From Negaprion brevirostris (lineage: Eukaryota), in the NCBI GenBank assembly GCA_030324005.1, contig JARDVH010000025.1:74600336-74664335 (forward strand): a DNA stretch of 64,000 bases, in the 5' to 3' direction. A program made the position numbers and the translations under genes. How positions within the stretch are numbered: the stretch's first letter is position 1; every line of letters starts with the position of its first letter. Under the pieces are notes generated by a model. The model did no database searches and was not told the DNA's origin. It saw nothing but the letters and a program-made list of their open reading frames with translations. Shown here one piece after another: positions 1 through 58,915 of this stretch.

Positions 1-39
1 AGGGCTTTGCATGGCACACAAGTCTTATTCCAGGTCTTG

Positions 40-600
40 TGAGGGGATGGAGAAAGGCTGCTCAGAACAGTGATGATCATATACAATATGGTATACAGGG
101 CATGGGTCAGTCACATAAGGGATTTGGTCCTGGAGGTTCGATCATGGTGTAGTGATGCAAAGAACATTATAACTTTCAGGAGAGGCAGCTAAATGCTATA
201 ACTTGATAACTGAAATGTCATGGAGGAGCTTATTGGATGATCTCATTTTGAGGCGGTGCTGAGAAGTAAGGGTATATTTGACCTCAAGAAGAGGAAGGGT
301 CAGGTTGACAAACAGCGTTGAGATATCAGCATTAAAATGTTCAGAGGGAAGAACAACAACAGCCACGTGATCAACAATGGGGTCAAAGGTAAGAGGGAGA
401 CTGGATAGTTACAGGATGATTTGGAATTAGGAGGCTATGAGTATGGAAGAAGATGGGACGAATTGATGAGTAATAGGGGAAAGTTGGAAGCTGCTTCATA
501 CACAAAAGTCAACACCACCATTTCTTCATTCACCGAAGAATGGCACAAAACAAGCTGGAGAAAATCATTCAGGGAGGGGTCTCTAGGCTCTGCATTCTTT
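40..600 (-). mobile_element. Old LINE (L2/CR1-like) RT remnant
   Basis: The reverse strand near 385-420 gives a degraded NY(R)P(I)SLLP-like motif. Heavily decayed. Confidence 0.4.
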
Positions 601-1099
601 GGCTAATTGAAGGTGCCCCCCTTTAAATTTCCTGCTCAAGCCATGGAGAGCGTGGCTCAACTGAGTGCTGGACTCAGAGGCCTAATGCACAATGAACAAG
701 TGGGGCTCCTTTATAGATGGTACTCATTCAGGCGACAATCCATTGTGTTTGGGAGCTGTGGTGCATCTGGTATAAAATGAAGGGCTATATCTGCTGCACT
801 GAGATGGTGTGGGTCCTACAAGCCTCCATGTTCCCAGTGTACTAGTCACGGCATTCAAGGCATCATGCTTGCAATCATGATATGCGTGCAAGGATTGGCT
901 ATCAGTAGTTATTATCAAGGCCACTGGAGGACAATCACTGACTGTGGGTTATAGGACAGCTGTGATTAGAATGAGATAAAGGACCCCTTGCCAATTGACA
1001 CAGCTCAGGGAAGACCATCACCCTAAGGATCAAGAGCCATTGGGTCCCCAGGAAATCCCACTGGCTGACTGAGGAATGGCCATATCCAAAACGATGTTT

Positions 1100-2110
1100 G
1101 GCACAACAAACAGGAGATGCAGCTCATACATGGAAATGAATGAAAGACAGTAGCACAGGTGCCTGCACTTGTCTGGAGATGTGGTAGCTCATGTTTGTTA
1201 TATTATCTTTGAGGAACCATGCTGCTCAGCCTTGGAGAGCATCTGATGCCAGTTGCTCTGAAAGTTACTGCTGCATTTTGCAAACAAAACCTTCCAGGGC
1301 CCTACTGGGGATCTTTGCAGAATTTCACATTCAGTGACATGCACAAGGAGGTGACATGTCCTTTTCAGTAAAGCTCATCATTATGTGCAGTTCCACATGG
1401 ATGACACAAGCCAGACTGCTAGAGCTGTGGGATTCCCATAAGTATGGGGTGCTATCAACTGTACATATGTGTCCTTGAGAGCTCCTTTGCAGCAGCCTGA
1501 TAGATCTATTTATATTAATATTTATATATTGAAGGAGATTTCCCTCTCTGAACATCCATCTCATTCATGGTCACAGAAAGCAGATCTAGCCTGTCTGTGC
1601 TAGTTACTCAGGGAGCTCACATCACTGGTACATTATTGGGTATCAGAGATACCTGAGGGACCTTGGTGCTTAGAGAGTTGGCTCCTGGCTGACAAGGGAT
1701 ACCCAGAAGACATGTTAATGATGCCTCTTTATTGCCCATGGAGTGCATCTGACAAGAAATACGATGCCACACATTCAACACAAGGCCCTGAATAGGATAA
1801 AGTATTGGTCTCCTAAAGATATGTTTCTGATGTTCAGACAGGTCAGATGGGGCTTTCCAACACTCATCACGGAGATTCACTACACACCTTGTGCTGCAAA
1901 GGGGGGATGTGTTGCCAAAGGGTGATATTGAGTTGCCTTCTTGAATGAGGAGGACTCGAAAGGGATGACTGAAAAGAGAAAGGATTCAGATGAGCAACAT
2001 GAATAAGCTATTGCATGGACACAACATGGCAGATGTGGTCACGCCAACCTCATGGCTACAAGATATCAAGAGGAATGAAAGAGAAGAAAGGGTTTCACAA
2101 AACCTTGATT
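1100..2110 (+). mobile_element. PIF/Harbinger transposase (HARBI1-like) remnant
   Basis: Motifs MPVALKVT (1246), GFP*VWGAINCTYVSLRAP (about 1429), SLNIHL...CASYSGSSH and WLLADKGYP (about 1679), followed by an acidic tail. Multiple stops and frameshifts. Confidence 0.85.
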
Positions 2111-2974
2111 CTCAGCATCAACATGTCAGGAAAGTTGATCAATTTCACCGTATCATTAAAACAGCATAAATTACCTGCTTCCCTTATCATGAAGTCAACC
2201 TTGGAAGGCCTTGAGTGGGAACATGTGTCCATTGAGCGATGTGATTAGCACTGCACCAGCACTCCTTAAGCAATCCCATTCAAACATGACACCAACAAGT
2301 CAGTGAGCATGGCAACCTTGAAACAGCTGCAACACCATTGCACACGTGGATGCAGTTGTACCAGAATGGCAGCAACTGAGCAAGGCAGTACATTTATCAT
2401 TGGTTAGTGCTTGACCATTTTAAGAGGGAGCAGCATCTGGACAGCACCATCTCTCCAAACGCCAGCTTTCGTGGATGAATAATGGAGAGGCTTCATTCTA
2501 ATACTGAGCACCAATATCCTTTCAGACATCAGGACACAGTGCCCTGTTACTCTTCAACAGTGTGCACGCAAAGCTGCAAGTTACGTCCCCCTTTAGCAGA
2601 CACTTCTAATGTCACCGAGTGGAACCTACTTCTCTTGTTCCGATGAGAGTGGGAATGAAGAAATTAATGATGTATAGCTTTAAATGCTGAGATTAAAACA
2701 TGCTGCGGGAGATATGAAAGGCTATGGTGCTCAAAGATGAATATTACATTTTCTGAAAATTCACTGTCATAAACTAGCTGCCATTGCTACACAGAGAAAA
2801 GATTCTAACATTTGTCACAACAAATACTTGTTACATTGACAAATTACAGACTTCAGTGCATAGCATCAGGATATCACTAAACTTGGTGAGCAATCCTCAT
2901 GAGCCCAAATAATATTTGACTGAGATTCAAAGGTCACATCAGTGTAGTCCAGCCATCATTTTTGCATGTTTATT

Positions 2975-3250
2975 CATAGAATCCATACAGTACAAAAGAG
3001 GCCATTTGGCCCATTGAGCCTTGGAAAGTGCACCCTACCCGGGCCCAATCTGCTGCTCTAATCTCATCACCCCGCGCATTGATCATGGCACATCTTTGGA
3101 CTATGGGAGGAAATCAGAGCACTCAGAGGAAACCCACACAGACATGGGGAGAACATGCAAACTTCACACAGTCACCAAATACTGCAATCAAAGCTGTGTT
3201 CTTGGTGCTGTGAGGTAGCAGTGCTAACCACTGTGCCACCTTGCCACCCC
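2975..3250 (-). mobile_element. HE1-type V-SINE (tRNA head, CR1-derived tail)
   Basis: Reverse complement gives ggtggcacagtggttagcactgct..., the V-domain gtttgcatgttctccccatgtctgtgtgggtttcctc and a tail ending ggattctatg. Confidence 0.9.
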
Positions 3251-3526
3251 TGAATGTTGCTGTTTTTGATGTGTAAATAAAGACAATTTACTATGATGAG
3301 ATTGAGTGAGAGTTAATGGAACTGAGGATGCAAATGGAAGATAATTGGAAGGGGTTGATGTTGGACCCTCAAATGTAAGTAGGACCTCACAACTTCAATT
3401 AGCTATTCAGTACCTGAGATTAGGAGAAGGATAAGTGCGAGCTATATTTACAATAGTGAAGATTGTACGTAGTAAATGAACACCCATGGCACCGTTGTGC
3501 ATTCATAACTTATTAATGTTTTGTCT

Positions 3527-4375
3527 CCTACAAAGAGACATTGATAGGATGTAGAGCTGGGCAGAAAAGTGGCAGATGGAATTTAATCCTGATAAGTGTG
3601 AGGTGATTAATTTTGGTAGGACAAACTTGAATGCAGATTACAGGGTCAACAGCAGGGTTCTGAGGAATGTGGAGGAGCAGAGATATTTTGGGGTTCATAT
3701 CCACAGATCTCTGAAGGTTGCCACTCAAGTGGATAGAGCCGTGAAGAAGGCTTGTACTGCGTTCGCGTTTATTGACAGGGGGTTTGAGTTTAAGAGCCGT
3801 GGGGTTACGCGACAACTATACCGGATGTCGGTGAGACCACATTTGGAATACTGTGTTCCGTTCTGGTCACCTCACTACAAGGAGGACGTGGAAGCATTGG
3901 AGAAAGTGCAGAGGAGATTTACCAGGATGCTGCTTGATTTGGAGGGTAGATCCAAAAGGAAAGGTTGAGGGAACTGGGGCTTTTCTTTTCGGAGCGAAGG
4001 AGTGTGAGAGGCGACTTAATAGAGGTTTATAAGACAATGAGAGGGATTGATGACAGTGGACGTGCAGAGACTATCTCCTCAGGTGGATGTAGCTGTCACT
4101 CGGTGGCATAACTATAAAGGTTCACGGTGGGAGATATAGGGGGGATGTCTGAGGTAGATTCTTCACTCAGAGTGGTTGGGGTGTGGAACAGACTGCCAGC
4201 TGTGGTAGTGGAGTCAGACACTTTAGAAACTTTCAAGCAGTTATTGGATAGGCACATGGAGCACTCCAGAATTATAGGGAGGGGATTGCTTGATCTTGGG
4301 ATTGGACATAGCTTGGCACAACATTGAGGGTCAAAGGGCCTGTAATGTGGTAATATTCTATGTTCGATGTTCTAT
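3527..4375 (+). mobile_element. CR1 LINE 3' end (RT C-terminus plus 3' UTR)
   Basis: WQMEFNPDKCEV...VRPHLEYCVPFWSPHYKEDVEALEKVQRRFTRML, with a ttctatgttc tail. Confidence 0.95.
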
Positions 4376-5930
4376 AAACTGAAATTGCACTCCGCCTGTA
4401 GTATATGTGTTTGTCGCCACATTATCTTTTGTTAGACTATTTTTGTCAAAAATAAGTATTAAACAGCTGATGAAAACAGACTGGGCAATCAACACTCCAG
4501 ATCGTCAAGCCCTTTATAGTTTGAGGTCAAGAAGACTGTCGACATTCTGAATATTCTATTGTTTTGAATAATACATATAAAAGACGACAGAAGTCTATTT
4601 TTCACATAAAAGACCAGTTATATTTTTATACCTGCTCAGATTTCAAATGGAATTATAAATATTGCAACGAGTTACGTAAACATTTATCTAAAGTATCAAC
4701 AAACACACACAAATAAAGGTCACAGGACAAAATTCAGTACACCGCATTTCTCAAACCGTCGCTACCACCGAGCTCGCAATTCATCAACGAAAATCGAGCA
4801 AAATAAATGCTGACAGTGAATGCTGAACGAATGTAATTATCTTCTGCTAAACTGTTGTTACAATTCGTTGCAATTACACTCCTTTTAATTGCACTGTGAT
4901 AGGTTGAAAAAAAATCAGTGTGTTCCAAAAACCTGTCAAACTCACATTCAATTGGGAACTCATGCAATGTGAAAAAACGAAAAGCCGAACCATCTCGCCA
5001 AACATCTTACAGAAACAATAGCCATAAATCACAATTCATGATGCTCAGACAGTAGGAACAGATTAAAGGCATTTACTTTCTTCAAAAATGATATTGCTTC
5101 TCTTTACCAATTCTAAAACAATGAATACTACATAAACAGGATCATCAAAACACAGCACAGGAGCCCACTATTTGGTCTATCACATCTGTGCATGCGACAA
5201 AGAGCCTAATCCTTTTGGTTCTTGGTCTGTCACCTCCAAGTGCACATCCCGGTAATTTTTAAAATGGCATCAAGTTCCCTGTATCTAACATCCTTTCCAG
5301 ACAGTGAGCTCACAAATTTAACGGTGCAGTAATTTAAATAGGTTCCAAGACATCACAACCAAAAGAAGTTCCCTTTTGCTTTTCGAAAGAAACCCCTGTT
5401 AAGATTGTTGCATCAATAATACAATAAACGTTGGACCATTACTTTTTTTGTGCGTCATCATTTCCTGTCACAAGCCTATGTGGCACATGAATAAGATTTC
5501 CCAACATTAAGCTAATTATCACAGATCCCCAGCTATACCATTGGGTGGCGCTTCAGTTCCTCACAACCCAACATGCTGGTTCAATGTCTTAGAACCAACT
5601 TCACATCCTCCGCTTACATCATCCACTCAAATAAATCTACTCACAAAATGATTTTTTAAAACTGCCCTAATATGGCTCAATTTTTTACTTTCAGTGTATA
5701 ATGTTTCCAGGCCCTGCCTACCTCTTATCCAATCTTAACATTCATCTGAAGCATACCACCCACCACCATGGCAACCCTTCCCCCGTCCTCCCTACCCCTC
5801 CATAAAATCTGCACAGCCCTCCCTAATATTAATTCCTTGCCGTTATTCAGTCTACAATTTCTTTTTTAATGCCCATCGTTAGTGGTTAGCTTTTTCACAT
5901 TGCAATATCAACAGCAGGATCACCCACCGT

Positions 5931-6165
5931 GAGGCAGTGGCTTGGTGATATGGTCACTGGGCTGGTAACCCAGTAGACCCAGGGTAGTGCTCTGGGGTTC
6001 AAATCTCACCATGGATTCAATAAAAATCTGGATTAAATTCAAAAAAATAAAACCATTGTTGATTGTTGTAAAAACCCATCTGTCCTTTCAGGAAGGAAAT
6101 CTGCCTACGTATGACTTCAGAGCCACAGCAATGTGCTTGATGCCCACATCCCATGAATTAATTAA
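5931..6165 (+). mobile_element. tRNA-derived SINE, second family
   Basis: A-box-like gaggcagtggcttggtg and B-box ggttcaaatct. The core ctttcaggaaggaaatctgcc is shared with 59750-60000. Confidence 0.7.
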
Positions 6166-6374
6166 AATAATAATGAATAAAAGCACAATAACAAAGAGGG
6201 CATAATATATGTCAAAAGTTACACAATGGTGGTCAATATAATTGTCAACTTATATGCAGGACAGTGCCATATGATCAATCTCTGCATTAAAAACACAGCT
6301 ACATTACAATGCAGCATCTAATACATTTGAAAGTATCAAAATATTTCACATTTAGCTGTCAGAATGCCACTCAA

Positions 6375-6540
6375 CTTCCAGACAATGGCCAACCTCCAAC
6401 AAGAATTCATCTGCCATCACTGAATCCCCCACGATCAACATCCTGAGGTTTACCATAAACTAGAAACTGAACTGGACCAACTATTTAAGAGTAGGCTGGG
6501 AATTCTGAGGGGAGTAACTCCCCTCCTGACTCTCCACTCA
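6375..6540 (+). mobile_element. LINE RT fragment
   Basis: ESPTINIL-x-x-TI...KLNWT...LGIL, homologous to the fragment at 41490-41680. Confidence 0.65.
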
Positions 6541-7899
6541 TGTGCTAATATGTACAGATGGCATGTCCTGGGGTTGAAGCTGTTGACGCTGTTATTTTGA
6601 ATCCAGAGCAGAGTCAGCCATGAGTACTATGTGCATTTCGGAATCCACAAAAAAGTATAGTTCGCATTTTGCAAACCCAGAAAGAAAGTCTGGGTCCAGG
6701 CATGCTCAATTGCTAATAATTGATTGTAGAGTTTTACAACTTCCTTGACATCTGATAGCTTTATTTGGCTGGCTTAAGTGATCTACAATGCACTGTTCCA
6801 AGTGTTTCTCGTACTTACTGCTGTTGTGCATTAATTACACTAGTTAAGGCATCCATCCAGTGGAGGCATTTAATTACTTCTAGTTTTTATGTGATCTGCT
6901 GTGATGCGTTAATTGCCTACTCAAAATATAATCAGAACCTTGGTGTAGTCCGCTCGATTATGAAATCGTGCTGTGTTACCAGCTCAAAGGGTAGGTTTAC
7001 ATTTGCAGTACAAAATTATTCAAAAACTTTTAGTTAGCTGTACTTGGATTGAAACGCAAAGTTTAAAGCACATGGTATGGTGGCATATCTGTCACGGGAA
7101 TCATTTTAAAGATGACTACTCCTTTGTGGGATTGCATAGCACAAGTTTCACTGTGAAAACAATTTCTCATTGTTAGTACTGTCATGCACCAGGCATTTGA
7201 CTCAATACTACATTGGAGTCAGTAAGAGTGTTGTGCTGAAATTAAAAGTGAAGTGCTTTCAAATCATAAATTGACGTGAATCGGCACGGCTATCAAAGGG
7301 TTTTTTAAAAATCTGAACTCAAAATTTCTCACCTCGGTCGATAGTTAAGTTTTCTTTTTTGTTTAACAGACGCTGACCAATCAGCTGAATATTTGTGGTT
7401 TCCATGTTTATTTCAAGTCCCAACGGCCTATCTTTTATCAAAGTTAAACCTTCTCACAGCAGTTATTAATGTTTCCAAACTTGTTTAAAAGCTTATTTCT
7501 GGTGGCACGTCAGCACTTTGAATATAATATTTAATTCCTGGAACCCATCGAGTGTGTTCGCTTGCTTCGTCAACTGCTTTCGTGCCATTTCGTTTACGAT
7601 ACAGTCTAGCCCTGCTGTTCTTTTCCAAAACAACTGCCTTTCTTATATTCAAGAAGCAGCAGCACTCTGCTTTCTCCCGAAGGGTGATCGGAATTTGACC
7701 TTTCTATATCCATTTCACTACCAGCTGCAAAGCAGACTCCACTGTCCCAGTATTTCAACAGAATGTTCCAATGATATCATCGTGATTACCCAACTTATAA
7801 TTCAATTTGTCTTTATGAAAGTTAATTTTAAGCTTTAAATTGCCCCATCAAGATACAGGAAACATTTTAGCTAAGGTCCATCCTAAGTCACAGTGTGGA

Positions 7900-8977
7900 G
7901 AAACAGTCTGTTGCAACATGGGATGGAGGCAATACAGCCTTCTGAGGCCACCATCAATGCTCGCAGGCAGACATGGGGACCTTTCAGCAGTTATCCTTAA
8001 GCTCCAAATATGGCTCCACGTATACTAACTTCATGGTGCAAGAAGCGGAGGCCAGCCTCTTAAAACTGCAAAGTCACAGAGTGCCAAATTCGGTCTCCAA
8101 CAACCAATTAATAACATGGATGAAGACTGACCACGGACACCGACAGACTATGAGAGAATTGTTATTAACTAAGAAAATGCCAGATGCAGAAAAAAACATC
8201 TATTCGCCGGTATGATTTTGCATGTTCTCAAGTAGGGGTCAATAACACATACTGCAAGTCAGGAGTTTGGGAAAGTATGAACACGGAGTGGAAGCCAAAT
8301 TAAAGGAACCATCCATGGAGGCAATGCAGATAAATGGGATTCTTTCTATCCTGAACAAGGAATGATGCAAGGCGAGCCGTAATGGAAACTGGCTGTGCCC
8401 AAAGTACATGCTCATAGACAGACTGAAGTGTGGGGACAAATCCTACAACTGTACTGTCCTTCCGGGCCAAGAGCCATGTGATAAATTATGCTGTCATACA
8501 GAACACCATTTATCTTTTACATCGTATGGACAGCATCAAAAAAGGAAGTACGAACCGCACTCTCCCAGGCCACAACGTGATAACAACCAATTTAACAGAA
8601 TCTACAATAACTGGTGATCCTGAGATTCTCCCAGACAGCCTTGTAGAAGAGGAAGACAACCTGAACCGGATTAATGACAACCAACAGATGTGAGAAAACA
8701 TGCAAAAGGAGTTCGCACAAGTTCCTCGCTTTAAGGTAGATTGGAATAAATTAAATAATCAGGCCCGTGACATGGAACATTTTTGAAAGGTAGAGGCTGA
8801 CTTAATTAAAAAACACGAGAAGAACGACGCTAAGACCCTTTAAACCCCGAGTACATGGGCCAATATATAGGATTGAATGATAATATCCATATGTTTTTGG
8901 ATCATATCCCATATAACAGTGATTCTGCAATTGTTTGTATTAATTGTTATTGTTGCAACATGCTCCATCAAACAGAC
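7900..8977 (+). pseudogene. Decayed retroviral-type envelope glycoprotein (TM-subunit-like) fragment
   Basis: Stitched frames give ...LLKLQSHRVPNSV...LQVRSLGKYEHG...E*CKASRNGNWLCPKY...KCGDKSYNCTV...TNRT...TNLTE...QVPRFKVDW...STWANI...WIISHITVILQLFVLIVIVATCSIK. This shows a Cys cluster, three N-glycosylation sequons and a C-terminal hydrophobic segment, with several stops and frameshifts. It ends at a 100-N gap. Confidence 0.55.
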
Positions 8978-9077
8978 NNNNNNNNNNNNNNNNNNNNNNN
9001 NNNNNNNNNNNNNNNNNNNNNNNNNNNNNNNNNNNNNNNNNNNNNNNNNNNNNNNNNNNNNNNNNNNNNNNNNNNNN

Positions 9078-9522
9078 GATGCTGCCTGGTTTGGAGGGTA
9101 GGTCTTATGAGGAAAGGTTGAGGGAGCTGGGGCTTTTCTCTTTAGAGCGGAGAAGGATGAGAGGCGACTTAATAGAGGTTTATAAGATGATGAGGGGGAT
9201 AGATAGAGTGGGTGTGCAGAGACTATTTCCTCGGGTGGATGTAGCTGTTACTAGGAGACATAACTGTAAGGTTCATGGTGGGAGATATAGGAGAGATGTT
9301 CGAGGTACTCTTTACTCAGAGAGTGATTGGGATGTGGAATGTTCTGCCTGCTGTGACAGTGGAGTCGGACACTTCAGGAACTTTCAAGCGGTTATTGGAT
9401 AGGCACATGGAGCACTCCAGAATTGTAGGGAGGGGATAGCTTGATCTTGAGTTTGGACGTAGCATGGCACAACATCGAAGGCCGAAGGGCCCGTACTGTG
9501 CTCTATTGTTCTGTGTTCTATG
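9078..9522 (+). mobile_element. CR1 LINE 3' end
   Basis: MLPGLEGRSYEERLRELGLFSLERRRMRGDLIEVYKMMRGIDRV. Same subfamily as 3927-4375. Confidence 0.95.
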
Positions 9523-11184
9523 TTTTACAGCTATGTCTAGGGGCAGCCCCAACATCTGCAGCAGAGGTGGAAACAACCTGTTGACTCGTATGTCTTGTTG
9601 TCTGAGATGAAACTGGGTGTCCCAGTCACCCGAGGTGTGGAGAGTCCCAGCCTGCTAAGGGTTTCCTGCTGTTGGTCTGACCTACACAGGTCCTGCAGAA
9701 ATCTGGCAGAAACTGCTGGTGTGGTATCTCCAAGGCGTTTGTCCCTTCCCATGAGCACCTACACATACATGCCAGAACTACAACATCAGCCAGAACAGGT
9801 GGGAGGACCTCCTGCTCCCATCGCTTGGAAAGAGGACCTCCCGCTTTTCCAGTGGAGGAGAATCCTCAGGGAGACCTTGCTGAACAGTGGAGTGGCAGAT
9901 TTTGTTCTTTTAAGTCCGATGGGGAACCTGGAAAACACAACATACCTGGCCTGCAACAAGTAAATGTCTGTCCAGGTGCTGTTTAAATATGGTGCCAGGA
10001 CCTTCTGCCCGTGAGGTAATGACTGCCCTGTCACGAGATTCAGTGAGCTCCTCACTAGTGCATAATTAACAAACTNNNNNNNNNNTGAAAACCAGATAAT
10101 TATGTGAGCTCATCTGACCCACTGCCCAGTGGAAATCATGCCGATATTCCTGCTGCCACCTCACTTTGTTCCAGCATGGAAAATTCTGGCCTATAAAACA
10201 TCCTGGAAATCCTGAATGCATCCAAATTATACATAAAATTAATTTGAGCATTTCTGGGACTTGTTGATGCCTAGTCATTTACGTAGGATGTTTGAGATTT
10301 GATAAATTAATTAATTCAGTGTGAAGTTTCATCCACATAATGGATTAGAATAAGAGAGTGTTTGCACAAGCTTCAGAATGCTCATTTAAAGATGTATGAT
10401 TGGCATTGGTGATTGATTTAATGTTCGAATAAGCAAGGTGTAACTGGACAGAACAGCCCCAGGAGATCCTTAAGTCATTGTACTTCTGTATCAAGTCCAC
10501 AGCTTGACCTAACAGCGACAGCCACTTGTACATGTAGAAATAAACATGCATTTCATAACACATTTTGCCTCAAGACTATGTGAGTAAATAGCAATATTTG
10601 CTTTGCCCGACAGTTTGACATGGCTTAGAGTGAGGGACAATAAGTGGATAGCACAGTCCCTCATGATAATGGGACAGTGAGTTATGTTATCTCACTGGTT
10701 TATAAAGACCTAGGTACATCCTCAAGAAAAGGAATTTTGGTATCACAATTTGTTTAAAGTCATGTGATTTGGTGTTTCGTTTGTTTCCAAGTCAAGAGTA
10801 TCATTTAATTTTTCATTCAGGTGTGTAGAACCTAAGTCTGAAGGTGAAGTGAAATAATCTCCAGATCAGATTGCCCCACTCCATGTCATAAGAAATTACA
10901 TACAAAAATCGACTGCTTCTGAGATATCTAAATATGCCATGTGCCCATGAACCTGGGAATTCTACTCCACACAATTCAAGGTCATCTTGTGGTTGTTTAT
11001 ATTTGTCTCTGGTTATTTATATTTGTACTTTAAGGGCTTGGAAGATTGGAAATGACTGATTTTTATTCAATTACCTCATTGCTGGACAAACATCAGGTCT
11101 AAACACTAGAACTTCTAGTATTTATTTGTAACTTAACTGAAACAGTTTTTTCACTTCTTCATGTGGCCTTTGAGACTCTGGTAA

Positions 11185-11360
11185 AAGGTAAAGTCGTCGT
11201 AGTCCCAGATCACCAAAGGCACTGACTGGTGGTGTTTTAACCTGAGGATCACCACACGACAGGCGAGGGGTGAGGTTGAGAAGGCGGGGCCTTCATGAAT
11301 AACCTCAACCAGTATGGGAATTGAACCTATGGCCACCTGCGACCATGGCGACTTTAGCCT
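11185..11360 (-). mobile_element. tRNA-derived SINE fragment
   Basis: The reverse strand has B-box ggttcaattccc followed by a SINE-like body. Confidence 0.55.
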
Positions 11361-12115
11361 TATTCTGTTGTATTCCATATCTAAGGAGGCCACAATGACT
11401 AAATGCTTAGAAATTCCTGGATTATTGTATTTCGGTCTTTCATTTAGTATGGGTCCAGGATAGGAAAGGGATATTTGGTTGAAGGAATGGCTGGAATTCA
11501 CCGACCTCAGATGTAGTTGTGATTCTCCAGTTCTACTGCAGTGAAAGGAATTTTGGTTGAGCAGGAACAGGATTGGAGAATCCCACCCACATCTTTGTCT
11601 TGGTGTCATACTTTTTTTTGCTAACAATAATAATCCTAAATATGACAAACTTTTTTTTTATTACTACAATTAACTTCTTGATCATGACATTGATGAAGCT
11701 TGGACTTCTTTTGGAAAGACTGAACCATTCTTGTCTGTCATCTGGTGAAGACTTTTTCCATAACCAAGGTGAGAATTATCCAGAAGAAAGAGAAAAAGTA
11801 TAAATCATAAGCATAAGAATTCTACTAATGACCACAGCAAACAGACAAAGGGCTTATTTTGCAGCAGCGCATGAGAGTCTGGGCATGTCATGGGCAGTTA
11901 TGCTGCAGGAATGTAGAAAAAAATTGCATTTTTAAAATCTTCTGATATTTACATCGATTCTTCATTCCATTCTAAGCATGAAATGTGCTTGGCCTCCTCT
12001 CAGTAAGCCATAAACTGTCTCTTTCAAAAATGAATTTGAAACACTAAACAATACCCAGTTTAATAATGACCTGTTGTCATAGTAACTAGAGTACAGCCTA
12101 TTTCCTCCAAAGCCT

Positions 12116-51888: not shown

Positions 51889-53030
51889 ATGGCACCTCAA
51901 TTCAGAGCTATAGGCCCTTCGAAGACAAGGCAGAGAGCTGGATACTTTATACAGAGTGCTTCAGTGTTCATCTGCAGGCCAACAAACTTGGCAATGACCT
52001 GGTTGTACTGGTTTTCCCTAAGTATCATGGGGAGCAAGGCTTGTGCTTTTTTAAAAAGTTTGGTACAACCTGAAAAACGGGCTGAGAAGACTTAACAATG
52101 TTTTGCAATGTATTAGAAGCTCACTTCATTCCCAAGCCTTTGATGTTTGCAGAGCAGTTCAGATTTTATAAGCACTGGACACGAAAGACCCAATGTCACA
52201 AGTAAAAGCGAATTGGTCACATTGCCCAAAATTGCTGGGTGCAACTAAGCCGAGAGAGAGGGAAACAACAGGGAGCAGTTAGAAGGACAAAACAGAAGGT
52301 CCATACTGCCAGCCATGGAGAGGATAGAGAATCAGCTAGATCTGCGGGGGAAGCAGACTGTTCAGAGAAACAGGAGTTCAGGTTAAACATTCTGTCGATA
52401 CGGGGTGAAGCCAGTCGTTTCTGGGTTCTCCCTGAACTGGAAGGGAAGACCACGAAAATGGAAGTCGATGTGGAGGCAGCAGCAGTGTCCTTGATACTTG
52501 AATCAGTAAAAAGGGATAAGTTAAAAGCCCTGCAATTAAAATCTGCCAAGATCACATTGCGAACATATACAGAGCAAGTGGTAGCCCTCGAGGGTTGTAT
52601 ACTGGTGAAGGCACAATTGAGGACCAATTTATAGAGTGACAACTATATGTGGTAAAAGATGTTTTGCGAGGTACCCTTGGAGAGATGAAGAGTGTCGAGA
52701 TTTAGTTAAGGCTGAAGCCAGATGCTTGTCCTAAAAGTCTAATGGCGTACTGTCCTGGACATGCTTTTAAACTTTTAGGTTAAGTTATGGCTGAAGTAAC
52801 AAGCTTATCCGAAAAGCCTAAAGGCATTTCCAGGACAGTATGCCATTAGACCTAAAATGAAGGTTAATTTGGAATGGTTGGTGGGTCTGGGTGCTTTGGA
52901 ACAAATAACCACCAGTGAATGGGCTGCCCCAATTGTCGCGGTGTTGAAATCAGACGGCTTGGTGAGAATTTGTGCAGATTTTAAGGTGAAAGTAAACCCA
53001 ATTCTGTGTGCAGACCATACCCTCTAATTC
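51889..53030 (+). mobile_element. Ty3/Gypsy LTR retrotransposon remnant (gag-protease-start of RT)
   Basis: IGPFEDKAESW (gag start, frameshifted), KMEVDVEAAAVSLI (degenerate DTG protease site), ITLRTYTEQ and SEWAAPIVAVLKSDGLVRICADFKVKVNP. Confidence 0.85.
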
Positions 53031-55802: not shown

Positions 55803-56081
<279 letters not shown>

Positions 56082-57927: not shown

Positions 57928-58329
57928 GTATGAAATTCATTCATTAATCTGCTCTTTAAATGCTTGTTCACTATTAATATATGTCAACAACTTCAGTGAG
58001 TTGATTTTCATTGGGTCGGTCTCAAGAAAAATAATCTTTGTTCACTTTGATGTTTACCGGAAGTGTTCGCTAACATAGTTGTGTCATTTCAAACACTGAA
58101 GCAGGAAGACCATTGCCTTCTTGATTGTATTTTCTAGAATCAGCCTCATTACTTATTCAGAGCAAACTGGAGTGGGCCTTTATCATGGAGCTTATTAGAA
58201 TGCAGGAAGCAGAAAATGTTGCATACTTTTGAACCTTAAATAACAACACTTGCAACAAAGCAGATAGCACATAGATCAGGAGCGAACAGGAGCACTGACA
58301 GAGATAAAGAGGTTGGAATCTGATGGTTA

Positions 58330-58915
58330 GAAGACCAGCTCCTTTCCATTCAAAGCTGTCCAGCTATTTGATCCAACAAGCCCTATATTCTGAAGAAGGA
58401 TCCCATCAGCAATATTTGACCATGTATTATAGAATAATACTGCAATGTTTGGGTATGAATCTGAAAGAGTCTGCTGCCTACATCTGTGCCAGGCAGATGT
58501 GGCAGTTGACATTTAATGCAGAGAGACATGAAGTGATTCATTTGGTAGGAAGTATGAGAAGAGACAAGACAAAATGAAAGTTACAATTCTAAAGGAGGTT
58601 CAGGAATAGAGGGATCGAGGACTTTATGTGCACAAATCATTGAAGGTGAAAGAGCAGGTTGAGGGAGCAATTAATAAAACATAAGAGCTGCTGGGCTTTA
58701 TAAATAGGGGAATAGAATATAAAAACAAGGAAGTTACGATAAACATCCACAAAACCATGGTGCTGCCTCGACTGCACTATTGCATAAAGCTTTGAGCATC
58801 ACACTTTAGAAAAGATATGAAGGTATAAGAGGGAGTGCAGGAAAGACTCACAAAATTGATTCCTGGGAATGGGATGAGGAACTTCAGTTATGTGGGTACA
58901 TTGGAGAAGCTGGAG
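58330..58915 (+). mobile_element. CR1 LINE RT fragment
   Basis: WQLTFNAERHEVIHL, LGFINRGIEYKNKEV and LEGVQ-like motifs. Confidence 0.85.

Follow-up and report, generated by a model that had tools for sequence, protein, structure and literature searches.

A dead, 5′-truncated env copy in Negaprion brevirostris belongs to a multicopy elasmobranch family with a predicted F-type fusogen

The window, by which we mean the whole stretch of 64,000 nucleotides of Negaprion brevirostris DNA analysed here, carries at 7902-8977 on its + strand a decayed coding stretch that is almost certainly the remnant of a viral envelope (env) gene. Six-frame translation resolves it into two main frames, in agreement with an earlier sequence-only reading of the same DNA; the motifs LQSHRVP (8066-8086), VRSLGKY and QVPRFKV lie on the + strand where that reading had placed them, and a motif scan recovers the sequons NCT, NRT and NLT that it had listed. 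The most 5′ recognisable piece (7902-7958, +) corresponds to the end of heptad repeat A and matches residues 127-145 of the catshark protein P0008, with a border perhaps 20-30 nt further upstream. This match is weak in isolation, its score being reached by 10 of 200 shuffles; paralogous contigs cover 7911-7962, and by eye, the loose ends of the paralogues are still window-like to ~7883. The F1/TM-like ectodomain core, with LQSHRVP and VRSLGKY, follows at 8015-8476 (+) and is interrupted by stops at 8213, 8243 and 8363; tblastn aligns it at 35% identity to P0008 residues 167-317 and at 29% to residues 390-547 of the stingray protein P0016, and the profile of alignment A3 finds it at iE 2e-25. 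Within it, a motif scan places a cluster of four cysteines at 8366-8452 (+). The cluster had been described correctly apart from its first spacing, given as x8, the actual pattern being C-x9-C-x10-C-x6-C; in P0010, P0013 and P0016 the cysteines are spaced x8-9/x10-11/x7.

The second frame, 8478-8897 (+), holds the C-terminal ectodomain and, going by the layout of the homologues, a putative heptad repeat B followed by a membrane-proximal stretch (MPER) rich in Trp. It aligns by tblastn at about 30% to P0008 residues 326-508 and P0010 residues 95-266, and has stops at 8691, 8784 and 8841, on some alignment paths also at 8868 and 8874; frameshifts of the C-terminal part fall near 8480-8560, 8865 and 8900. 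The hydrophobic anchor of 22 aa noticed earlier is confirmed at 8898-8963 (+), where the top 19-mer reaches a hydropathy of 2.74, and it lines up with the transmembrane anchors of P0008, P0010, P0013 and P0016. A CX6CC/ISD-like motif, already reported as lacking, is absent from the two window pieces and five homologues scanned (0/7).

Downstream, the remnant runs into an assembly gap of 100 N (8978-9077), in which the cytoplasmic tail is hidden together with the insertion's 3′ end. In all four sequencing runs (4/4), one contig continues for 157-196 nt past 8977 and then ends, and an LTR 3′ of env, beyond 8977, is possible. The LINE 3′ end behind the gap (9078-9527, +) is separate from env and shares 83% identity over 454 nt with a second copy at 3926-4374; by its motif it looks to be of CR1 type. 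The window has two LINE 3′ ends, at 3555-4374 and 9078-9527 (+), and numerous SINE copies across its length. Upstream, 6570-7880 forms a single-copy 5′ flank common to four organisms, with flat single-contig depth in the four runs where covered. This flank holds no trace of gag, pol or LTR, and six-frame Pfam searches gave no match below E 0.1 in 6570-7910 and no pol in 1-12000; tblastn of RNase H leaders and N-terminal env parts against the whole window returned nothing below E 0.04. Around the env locus neither an LTR-like repeat nor a target-site duplication was found, the single 9-mer match standing against an estimated ~0.4 expected by chance.

Some 47 kb downstream of env, and like it on the + strand, a DNMT3A PWWP exon with AG and GT borders lies at 55908-56066; the assignment follows the E values of DNMT3A chains (about 1e-27) against those of single-copy DNMT3B chains (about 1e-16). 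It is the only DNMT3 exon that a motif scan of the window found. Two minor features lie nearby. A stop-free frame of 142 aa at 52206-52634 (+), with no Pfam match at E≤0.1, has motifs that resemble a decayed Ty3/gypsy zinc knuckle and the start of an aspartic protease. At 58326-58481 (+), tblastn weakly aligns several family proteins by their heptad A region (E 0.07-0.4), probably through a fortuitous similarity of helices.

Homology to an elasmobranch protein family is observed directly. A frameshift-aware alignment places residues 127-508 of P0008 (catshark, 513 aa) on 7902-8975. Of the 354 residues that match, 123 are identical (35%), and the score is 396, compared with 37-42 for four shuffled queries; by tblastn, the same protein finds the window at E about 1e-34. 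Across the family, 23 of 27 proteins match the window at E≤1e-3, every match falling inside 8015-8975. In-frame stops in the copy number 6-8, and it shows one to five frameshifts according to the homologue used for the alignment. Upstream of 7902, env does not extend at the protein level, 40 of 40 shuffles scoring equal or better; since the contigs also show the copy starting at ~7880-7910, it has lost the N-terminal domain together with the furin site and the fusion peptide. The window copy is without its front third and without gag, pol or LTR of its own, and as it lacks a furin site, a fusion peptide and an open frame, the fusogen cannot be made from it.

The relatives came from protein databases. 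A phmmer search of 1.84 billion proteins with the window piece gave four matches at E≤0.001, two of them uncharacterised proteins of the cloudy catshark (5e-16 and 9e-7). The remaining two, P0004 and P0006, consist of unrelated bacterial repeats of Ig-like and ankyrin type and were excluded. Profile searches from the catshark proteins then recovered 7 and finally 25 proteins among 7391 candidates, 24 from Scyliorhinus torazame and one from Hypanus sabinus; the catshark set consists of 23 scyTo models, on contigs that all differ in length, and one RefSeq model, and its identity to the window env is about 30-39%. Multicopy relatives, foreseen by the sequence-only reading, are therefore present both as the 24 catshark models and as diverged copies in 4/4 sequencing runs. 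As to the accompanying expectation of pol linkage, RNase H is joined to env in two of the 24 catshark models and nowhere in the window. Searches of Pfam and PDB sequences with the window pieces gave nothing, a word-indexed search for longer proteins gave 0 of 311 candidates, and no relatives were found in viral contigs or metagenome contigs.

The history of the locus can be followed in four of 13 sequencing runs (organisms A-D), compared over 6570-8977. The junction between flank and env is bridged by one contig in all four; one run is identical to the window where it covers it and may stem from the same source, and the other three organisms diverge by 4.1-8.5%. Conservation of env does not exceed that of the flank (divergence 6.4 vs 4.8%, p 0.09; 6.7 vs 4.1%, p 0.11), the trend being towards more change in env. 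Records less than 90% alike number 9 of 14, 10 of 13, 11 of 16 and 5 of 6 in the four runs, and those listed lie on env alone; among the tables listed, paralogue contigs of roughly 80-88% identity cover env and not the flank. Extra contigs on env but not on the flank mean that the family is multicopy in four genomes and that this copy starts at ~7880-7910. Near the 3′ end, the other three organisms lack some of the breaks, so decay continued after the split. All four carry an old, dead insertion at one shared locus, without any sign of constraint; being orthologous, it could serve as a minimum-age marker for the Env family. Under an assumed shark rate (PMC4422223) or a mammalian rate, the divergence would correspond to at least tens of millions of years. 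Events would have begun with a germ-line insertion before the split of the four organisms; everything 5′ of about 7880-7900 would then have been lost, also before the split, through a deletion or the retroposition of a truncated transcript, and neutral decay would have followed. A 5′-truncated transcript copied by a LINE remains the alternative to deletion.

What the window copy has lost can be read from its relatives. P0008 extends from a short F2-like part through to the tail, and two stingrays carry unbroken ORFs of 745 aa: P0016 (XP_059838750.1, Hypanus sabinus LOC132401028) and P0031 (XP_072911529.1, Hemitrygon akajei). P0016 opens with a signal peptide (13-31) and a domain of ~200 aa with a Thr-rich linker; next in the relatives come a part of ~70 aa, a basic cleavage site, a Gly/Ala-rich stretch resembling a fusion peptide and a long helix, and these are followed by a beta-rich core that contains the four-cysteine cluster, then by a further helix, a stretch rich in Trp and the anchor. 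These part names are provisional. From cleavage site to anchor, P0016 has 400 residues and P0008 411. The layout of a class I Env (cleavage site, fusion peptide, heptads, anchor) is found in both, and the window keeps the section from heptad A to the anchor. The parent protein would have possessed a signal peptide, a probably receptor-binding N-terminal domain and a short F2-like part; furin cleavage would have freed the fusion peptide, and heptad repeats A and B would have refolded to a six-helix bundle, merging the membranes in the manner of paramyxovirus F and foamy Env.

Judging from the Atlas comparison and the order of motifs, the product of the env family is very probably a fusogen of the F-type within class I. 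The Atlas results are those of the stingray relative (query P0016 residues 225-745), the window piece itself having none. The top features scored 0.95, for a cluster with 21% PF00523 and 11% Baculo_F, and 0.94, for F0 with 82% PF00523; values of 0.94-0.95 are reached by shuffled proteins about 1 to 10 times in 100. Among the structure rows, computed on an Atlas model of pLDDT 0.48 and with TM values all at or under 0.5, Baculo_F stood at 0.50, F0 at 0.45-0.47, Gypsy env at 0.45 and foamy Env at 0.41, the last falling below the Atlas bar for naming. When the F families were excluded, the best score dropped to 0.87, with foamy Env at 0.83. The F proteins of paramyxoviruses and pneumoviruses (PF00523) and of baculoviruses and errantiviruses (PF12259, PF07253) are accordingly the best neighbours of P0016 by language model and predicted structure; unlike them, the P0016 family is a multicopy genomic element, has an extra N-terminal domain and gives no sequence-profile match.

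Sequence profiles did not bear out the matches to foamy Env and F proteins for which the sequence-only reading had proposed a search: no family member matches PF00523, PF03408 or PF07253, the absence of PF00523 holding at E≤5 for P0008, E≤0.1 for P0016 and E≤10 for P0031. Weak Pfam matches on the helix-anchor end concern GP41 (E 0.016-0.06) and Baculo_F (E 0.08), and profile searches of PDB sequences gave nothing significant. The two AlphaFold models, with pLDDT 41.6 and 32.0, are too low in confidence to use; on these, Foldseek gave no match at E≤0.001, and VIA saw helical bundles only. In the sub-threshold Foldseek list of viral proteins, obtained with the pLDDT 32 model and without evidential weight, WDSV Env ranks first and WEHV1 Env third, with several mononegaviral F proteins below them, a ranking that raises the question whether epsilonretrovirus Env is F-type. 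In a second sub-threshold list, two groups make up 40 of the 47 matches listed: coronavirus spike, of which the PDB has a surplus of entries, with 35, and paramyxo-/pneumovirus F with 5. The remaining Foldseek search on a low-confidence model was noise.

An origin of the remnant as a pseudogene of a cellular membrane protein is extremely improbable. The intact, host-annotated 745-aa ORFs of two stingrays would suit such an origin, but the copies are intronless, dispersed and in many cases decayed, they show the furin site and fusion-peptide layout as well as linkage to RNase H, and the top Atlas sets are all viral or retroelement fusogens. The earlier view of the locus as a fossil viral env, not of gamma type, with a long F-like ectodomain and multicopy in elasmobranchs, stands.

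A hint at the kind of virus that carried this env comes from two catshark models on different contigs, P0023 and P0030, in which an RNase H piece of 50 aa stands first and is spliced onto the end of env. The two pieces are identical at 37 of 50 positions and match Pfam RNase_H at E 4e-4 and 4e-5, below Pfam's cut-off. In a PDB search, each piece gave nine RNase H/RT rows, all with MLV/XMRV-type names (best E 5e-6 and 2e-5), and no RNase H named after foamy virus, HIV or bacteria appeared up to E 1. The MLV/XMRV-only comparison presupposes that the PDB set includes foamy RNase H. By eye, the leaders of P0020 and P0027 look like ends of integrase and RNase H, for which the PDB gave no support, and P0023, P0024 and P0029 (all catshark) share a leader piece of 21-24 aa placed between RNase H and env. 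In the classification of Wang and Han, loki and foamy RNase H make up group I and most other retroviruses group III (PMC7947760); the MLV-like piece of 50 aa would fit group III, without separating clade Mu from clade Huo. The proposal of a spuma-like or loki-like parent finds no support, as the RNase H joined to env matches only MLV/XMRV, the layout of the stingray Env is unlike that of foamy viruses and PF00523 is not matched. A retroviral parent that is neither foamy nor loki is likely.

The loki alternative, a first lokiretrovirus env in cartilaginous fish with the MLV-like RNase H coming from neighbouring elements, has several points in its favour. The motif order is identical to that of lokiretrovirus Env, which shares the env position, a basic cleavage site (RXKR-type in loki), fusion peptide, coiled coil, anchor and a resemblance to mononegaviral F (PMC7947760), and the top Atlas features are F-type clusters of 430-560 aa. 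However, loki Env matches PF00523 at E 2.2e-7 (PMC7947760), whereas the elasmobranch family does not match it, and the stingray relative has an additional N-terminal domain of ~200 aa. Moreover, the RNase H linked to the family in catshark is MLV-like, and not of group I, in both of the two models with Pfam RNase H, and the main text of PMC7947760 names no cartilaginous fish among the loki hosts. On this evidence we consider a loki parent quite unlikely.

A foamy-like env is, in our estimation, very improbable. Foamy Env resembles the elasmobranch family in its F-type fold, which for the family is a prediction, and in a long, cysteine-rich TM ectodomain, ~380-410 aa across the two (Fernandez et al. 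2024, PMC11468914); in the foamy protein, the furin site at 567-570 and the anchor from 948 leave about 377 residues between. Spuma ERVs are, besides, reported from catshark (PMC10699275), and the Atlas did produce the sub-bar foamy structure row. On the other side, the foamy protein combines a membrane-spanning leader with two furin sites and carries its receptor domain as an insertion ahead of the second of these (PMC11468914), while P0016 has a plain signal peptide as its single N-terminal hydrophobic stretch, an extra domain ahead of the short F2-like part, and neither a second furin site nor such an insertion immediately upstream of the furin site. The lengths differ as well (745 aa in P0016, about 990 aa in foamy Env), no family member matches PF03408, the foamy feature score is just 0.83, and the RNase H is MLV-like.

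A carrier outside the retroviruses, either an env-bearing Ty3/gypsy or BEL element or an F gene acquired by endogenisation from an RNA or DNA virus and subsequently copied, is unlikely. Such a carrier would agree with the Gypsy (0.94) and Baculo_F clusters among the Atlas rows, with the window's lack of a pol of its own and with the wide occurrence of F-type env in Ty3/gypsy elements (PMC13524379; also PMC12583693). Yet the sole pol-like pieces joined to the family are of MLV-type RNase H, and a replicating element accounts for the more than 20 loci in catshark more readily than does the one-off insertion of an RNA virus.

On balance, we regard the window stretch as a dead, 5′-truncated copy of a multicopy elasmobranch env, predicted to be F-type and likely derived from an orthoretrovirus-type, epsilon-like or snakehead-like ERV. 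To the observed family homology, breaks, missing front part and insertion shared by four organisms, this reading adds a lineage, for which an epsilon- or snakehead-like parent is the best fit given the MLV-like RNase H, the non-foamy layout of the Env, the presence of such ERVs in elephant shark (PMC4422223; also PMC6001957, PMC4977317, PMC8922424) and the non-gamma Env of walleye viruses. The hallmarks of gamma-type Env are an ISD and CX6CC in TM, and walleye epsilonretrovirus Env is without them (PMC9967133). The likeness to walleye WDSV/WEHV Env and elephant-shark ERVs would consist of a non-gamma Env on an orthoretrovirus-type pol in aquatic hosts (PMC9967133, PMC4422223), although the walleye protein is much longer, at 1159-1317 aa compared with 745 aa in stingray, and its SU resisted modelling (bioRxiv 2021.11.05.467493). 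Against the lineage call, it rests on two 50-aa RNase H pieces from automatic gene models, possibly spliced across neighbouring elements; the models that bear them are catshark copies with just ~30-39% identity to the env of the window; and retroviruses commonly exchange their env genes.

One more alternative is a retroviral env whose parent in the window lineage had a different pol than the catshark copies, which would leave the lineage open. The low identity of the window env to the catshark models favours it, as does the frequency of domain shuffling in retroviruses (PMC7947760); but the paralogues of 80-88% identity in four runs form a coherent family, and nothing points to another pol. 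We therefore hold this alternative to be very unlikely and retain the epsilon- or snakehead-like parent.

F-type envelopes are already known from loki, foamy viruses and Ty3/gypsy (PMC7947760, PMC11468914, PMC13524379, PMC12583693), and the ERV ectodomains described from cartilaginous fish in PMC11521997 are filovirus-like and hence of a different type. Within the main texts of openly accessible papers, our literature search found no description of this env family, of a stingray env, of an epsilon or snakehead Env that is F-like, or of an F-type Env with an MLV-type pol; the last would add to the retroviruses for which such a fusogen is known. Only tentatively, and with doubt slightly outweighing belief, do we extend the interpretation to an orthoretrovirus-type ERV lineage across sharks and rays, whose F-type Env would bear its receptor domain at the front and be of the same class as walleye epsilonretrovirus Env. 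If true, F-type fusogens would occur in the loki, foamy and orthoretroviral branches, and F would be favoured as the ancestral retroviral envelope, later replaced by gamma- and beta-type Env. Wang and Han were undecided between the first retroviruses having an F-type envelope and its acquisition by loki (PMC7947760); foamy Env has since been found F-like (PMC11468914), and an F-type Env combined with an MLV-type pol would bear on their question.

The locus itself is an inert fossil, and the interest lies in the env family and the intact stingray ORFs, which supply structural studies with a full-length protein of natural origin and present a possible case of env co-option in a live-bearing fish. 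P0016 and P0031 show 29 differences, with no stop and no change in length, and H. sabinus has in addition a partial copy of 319 aa, P0032 (LOC132400333). As many as 29 differences without any break suggest selection, acting on either a replicating virus or a co-opted host gene; that the intact 745-aa copy of these two live-bearing stingrays is a co-opted host gene is conceivable, if somewhat unlikely. The N-terminal domain of P0016 has no Pfam or PDB sequence match. Its residues 30-200 are beta-rich in appearance and, by eye, seem closer to a sandwich of the galectin type than to an Ig domain.
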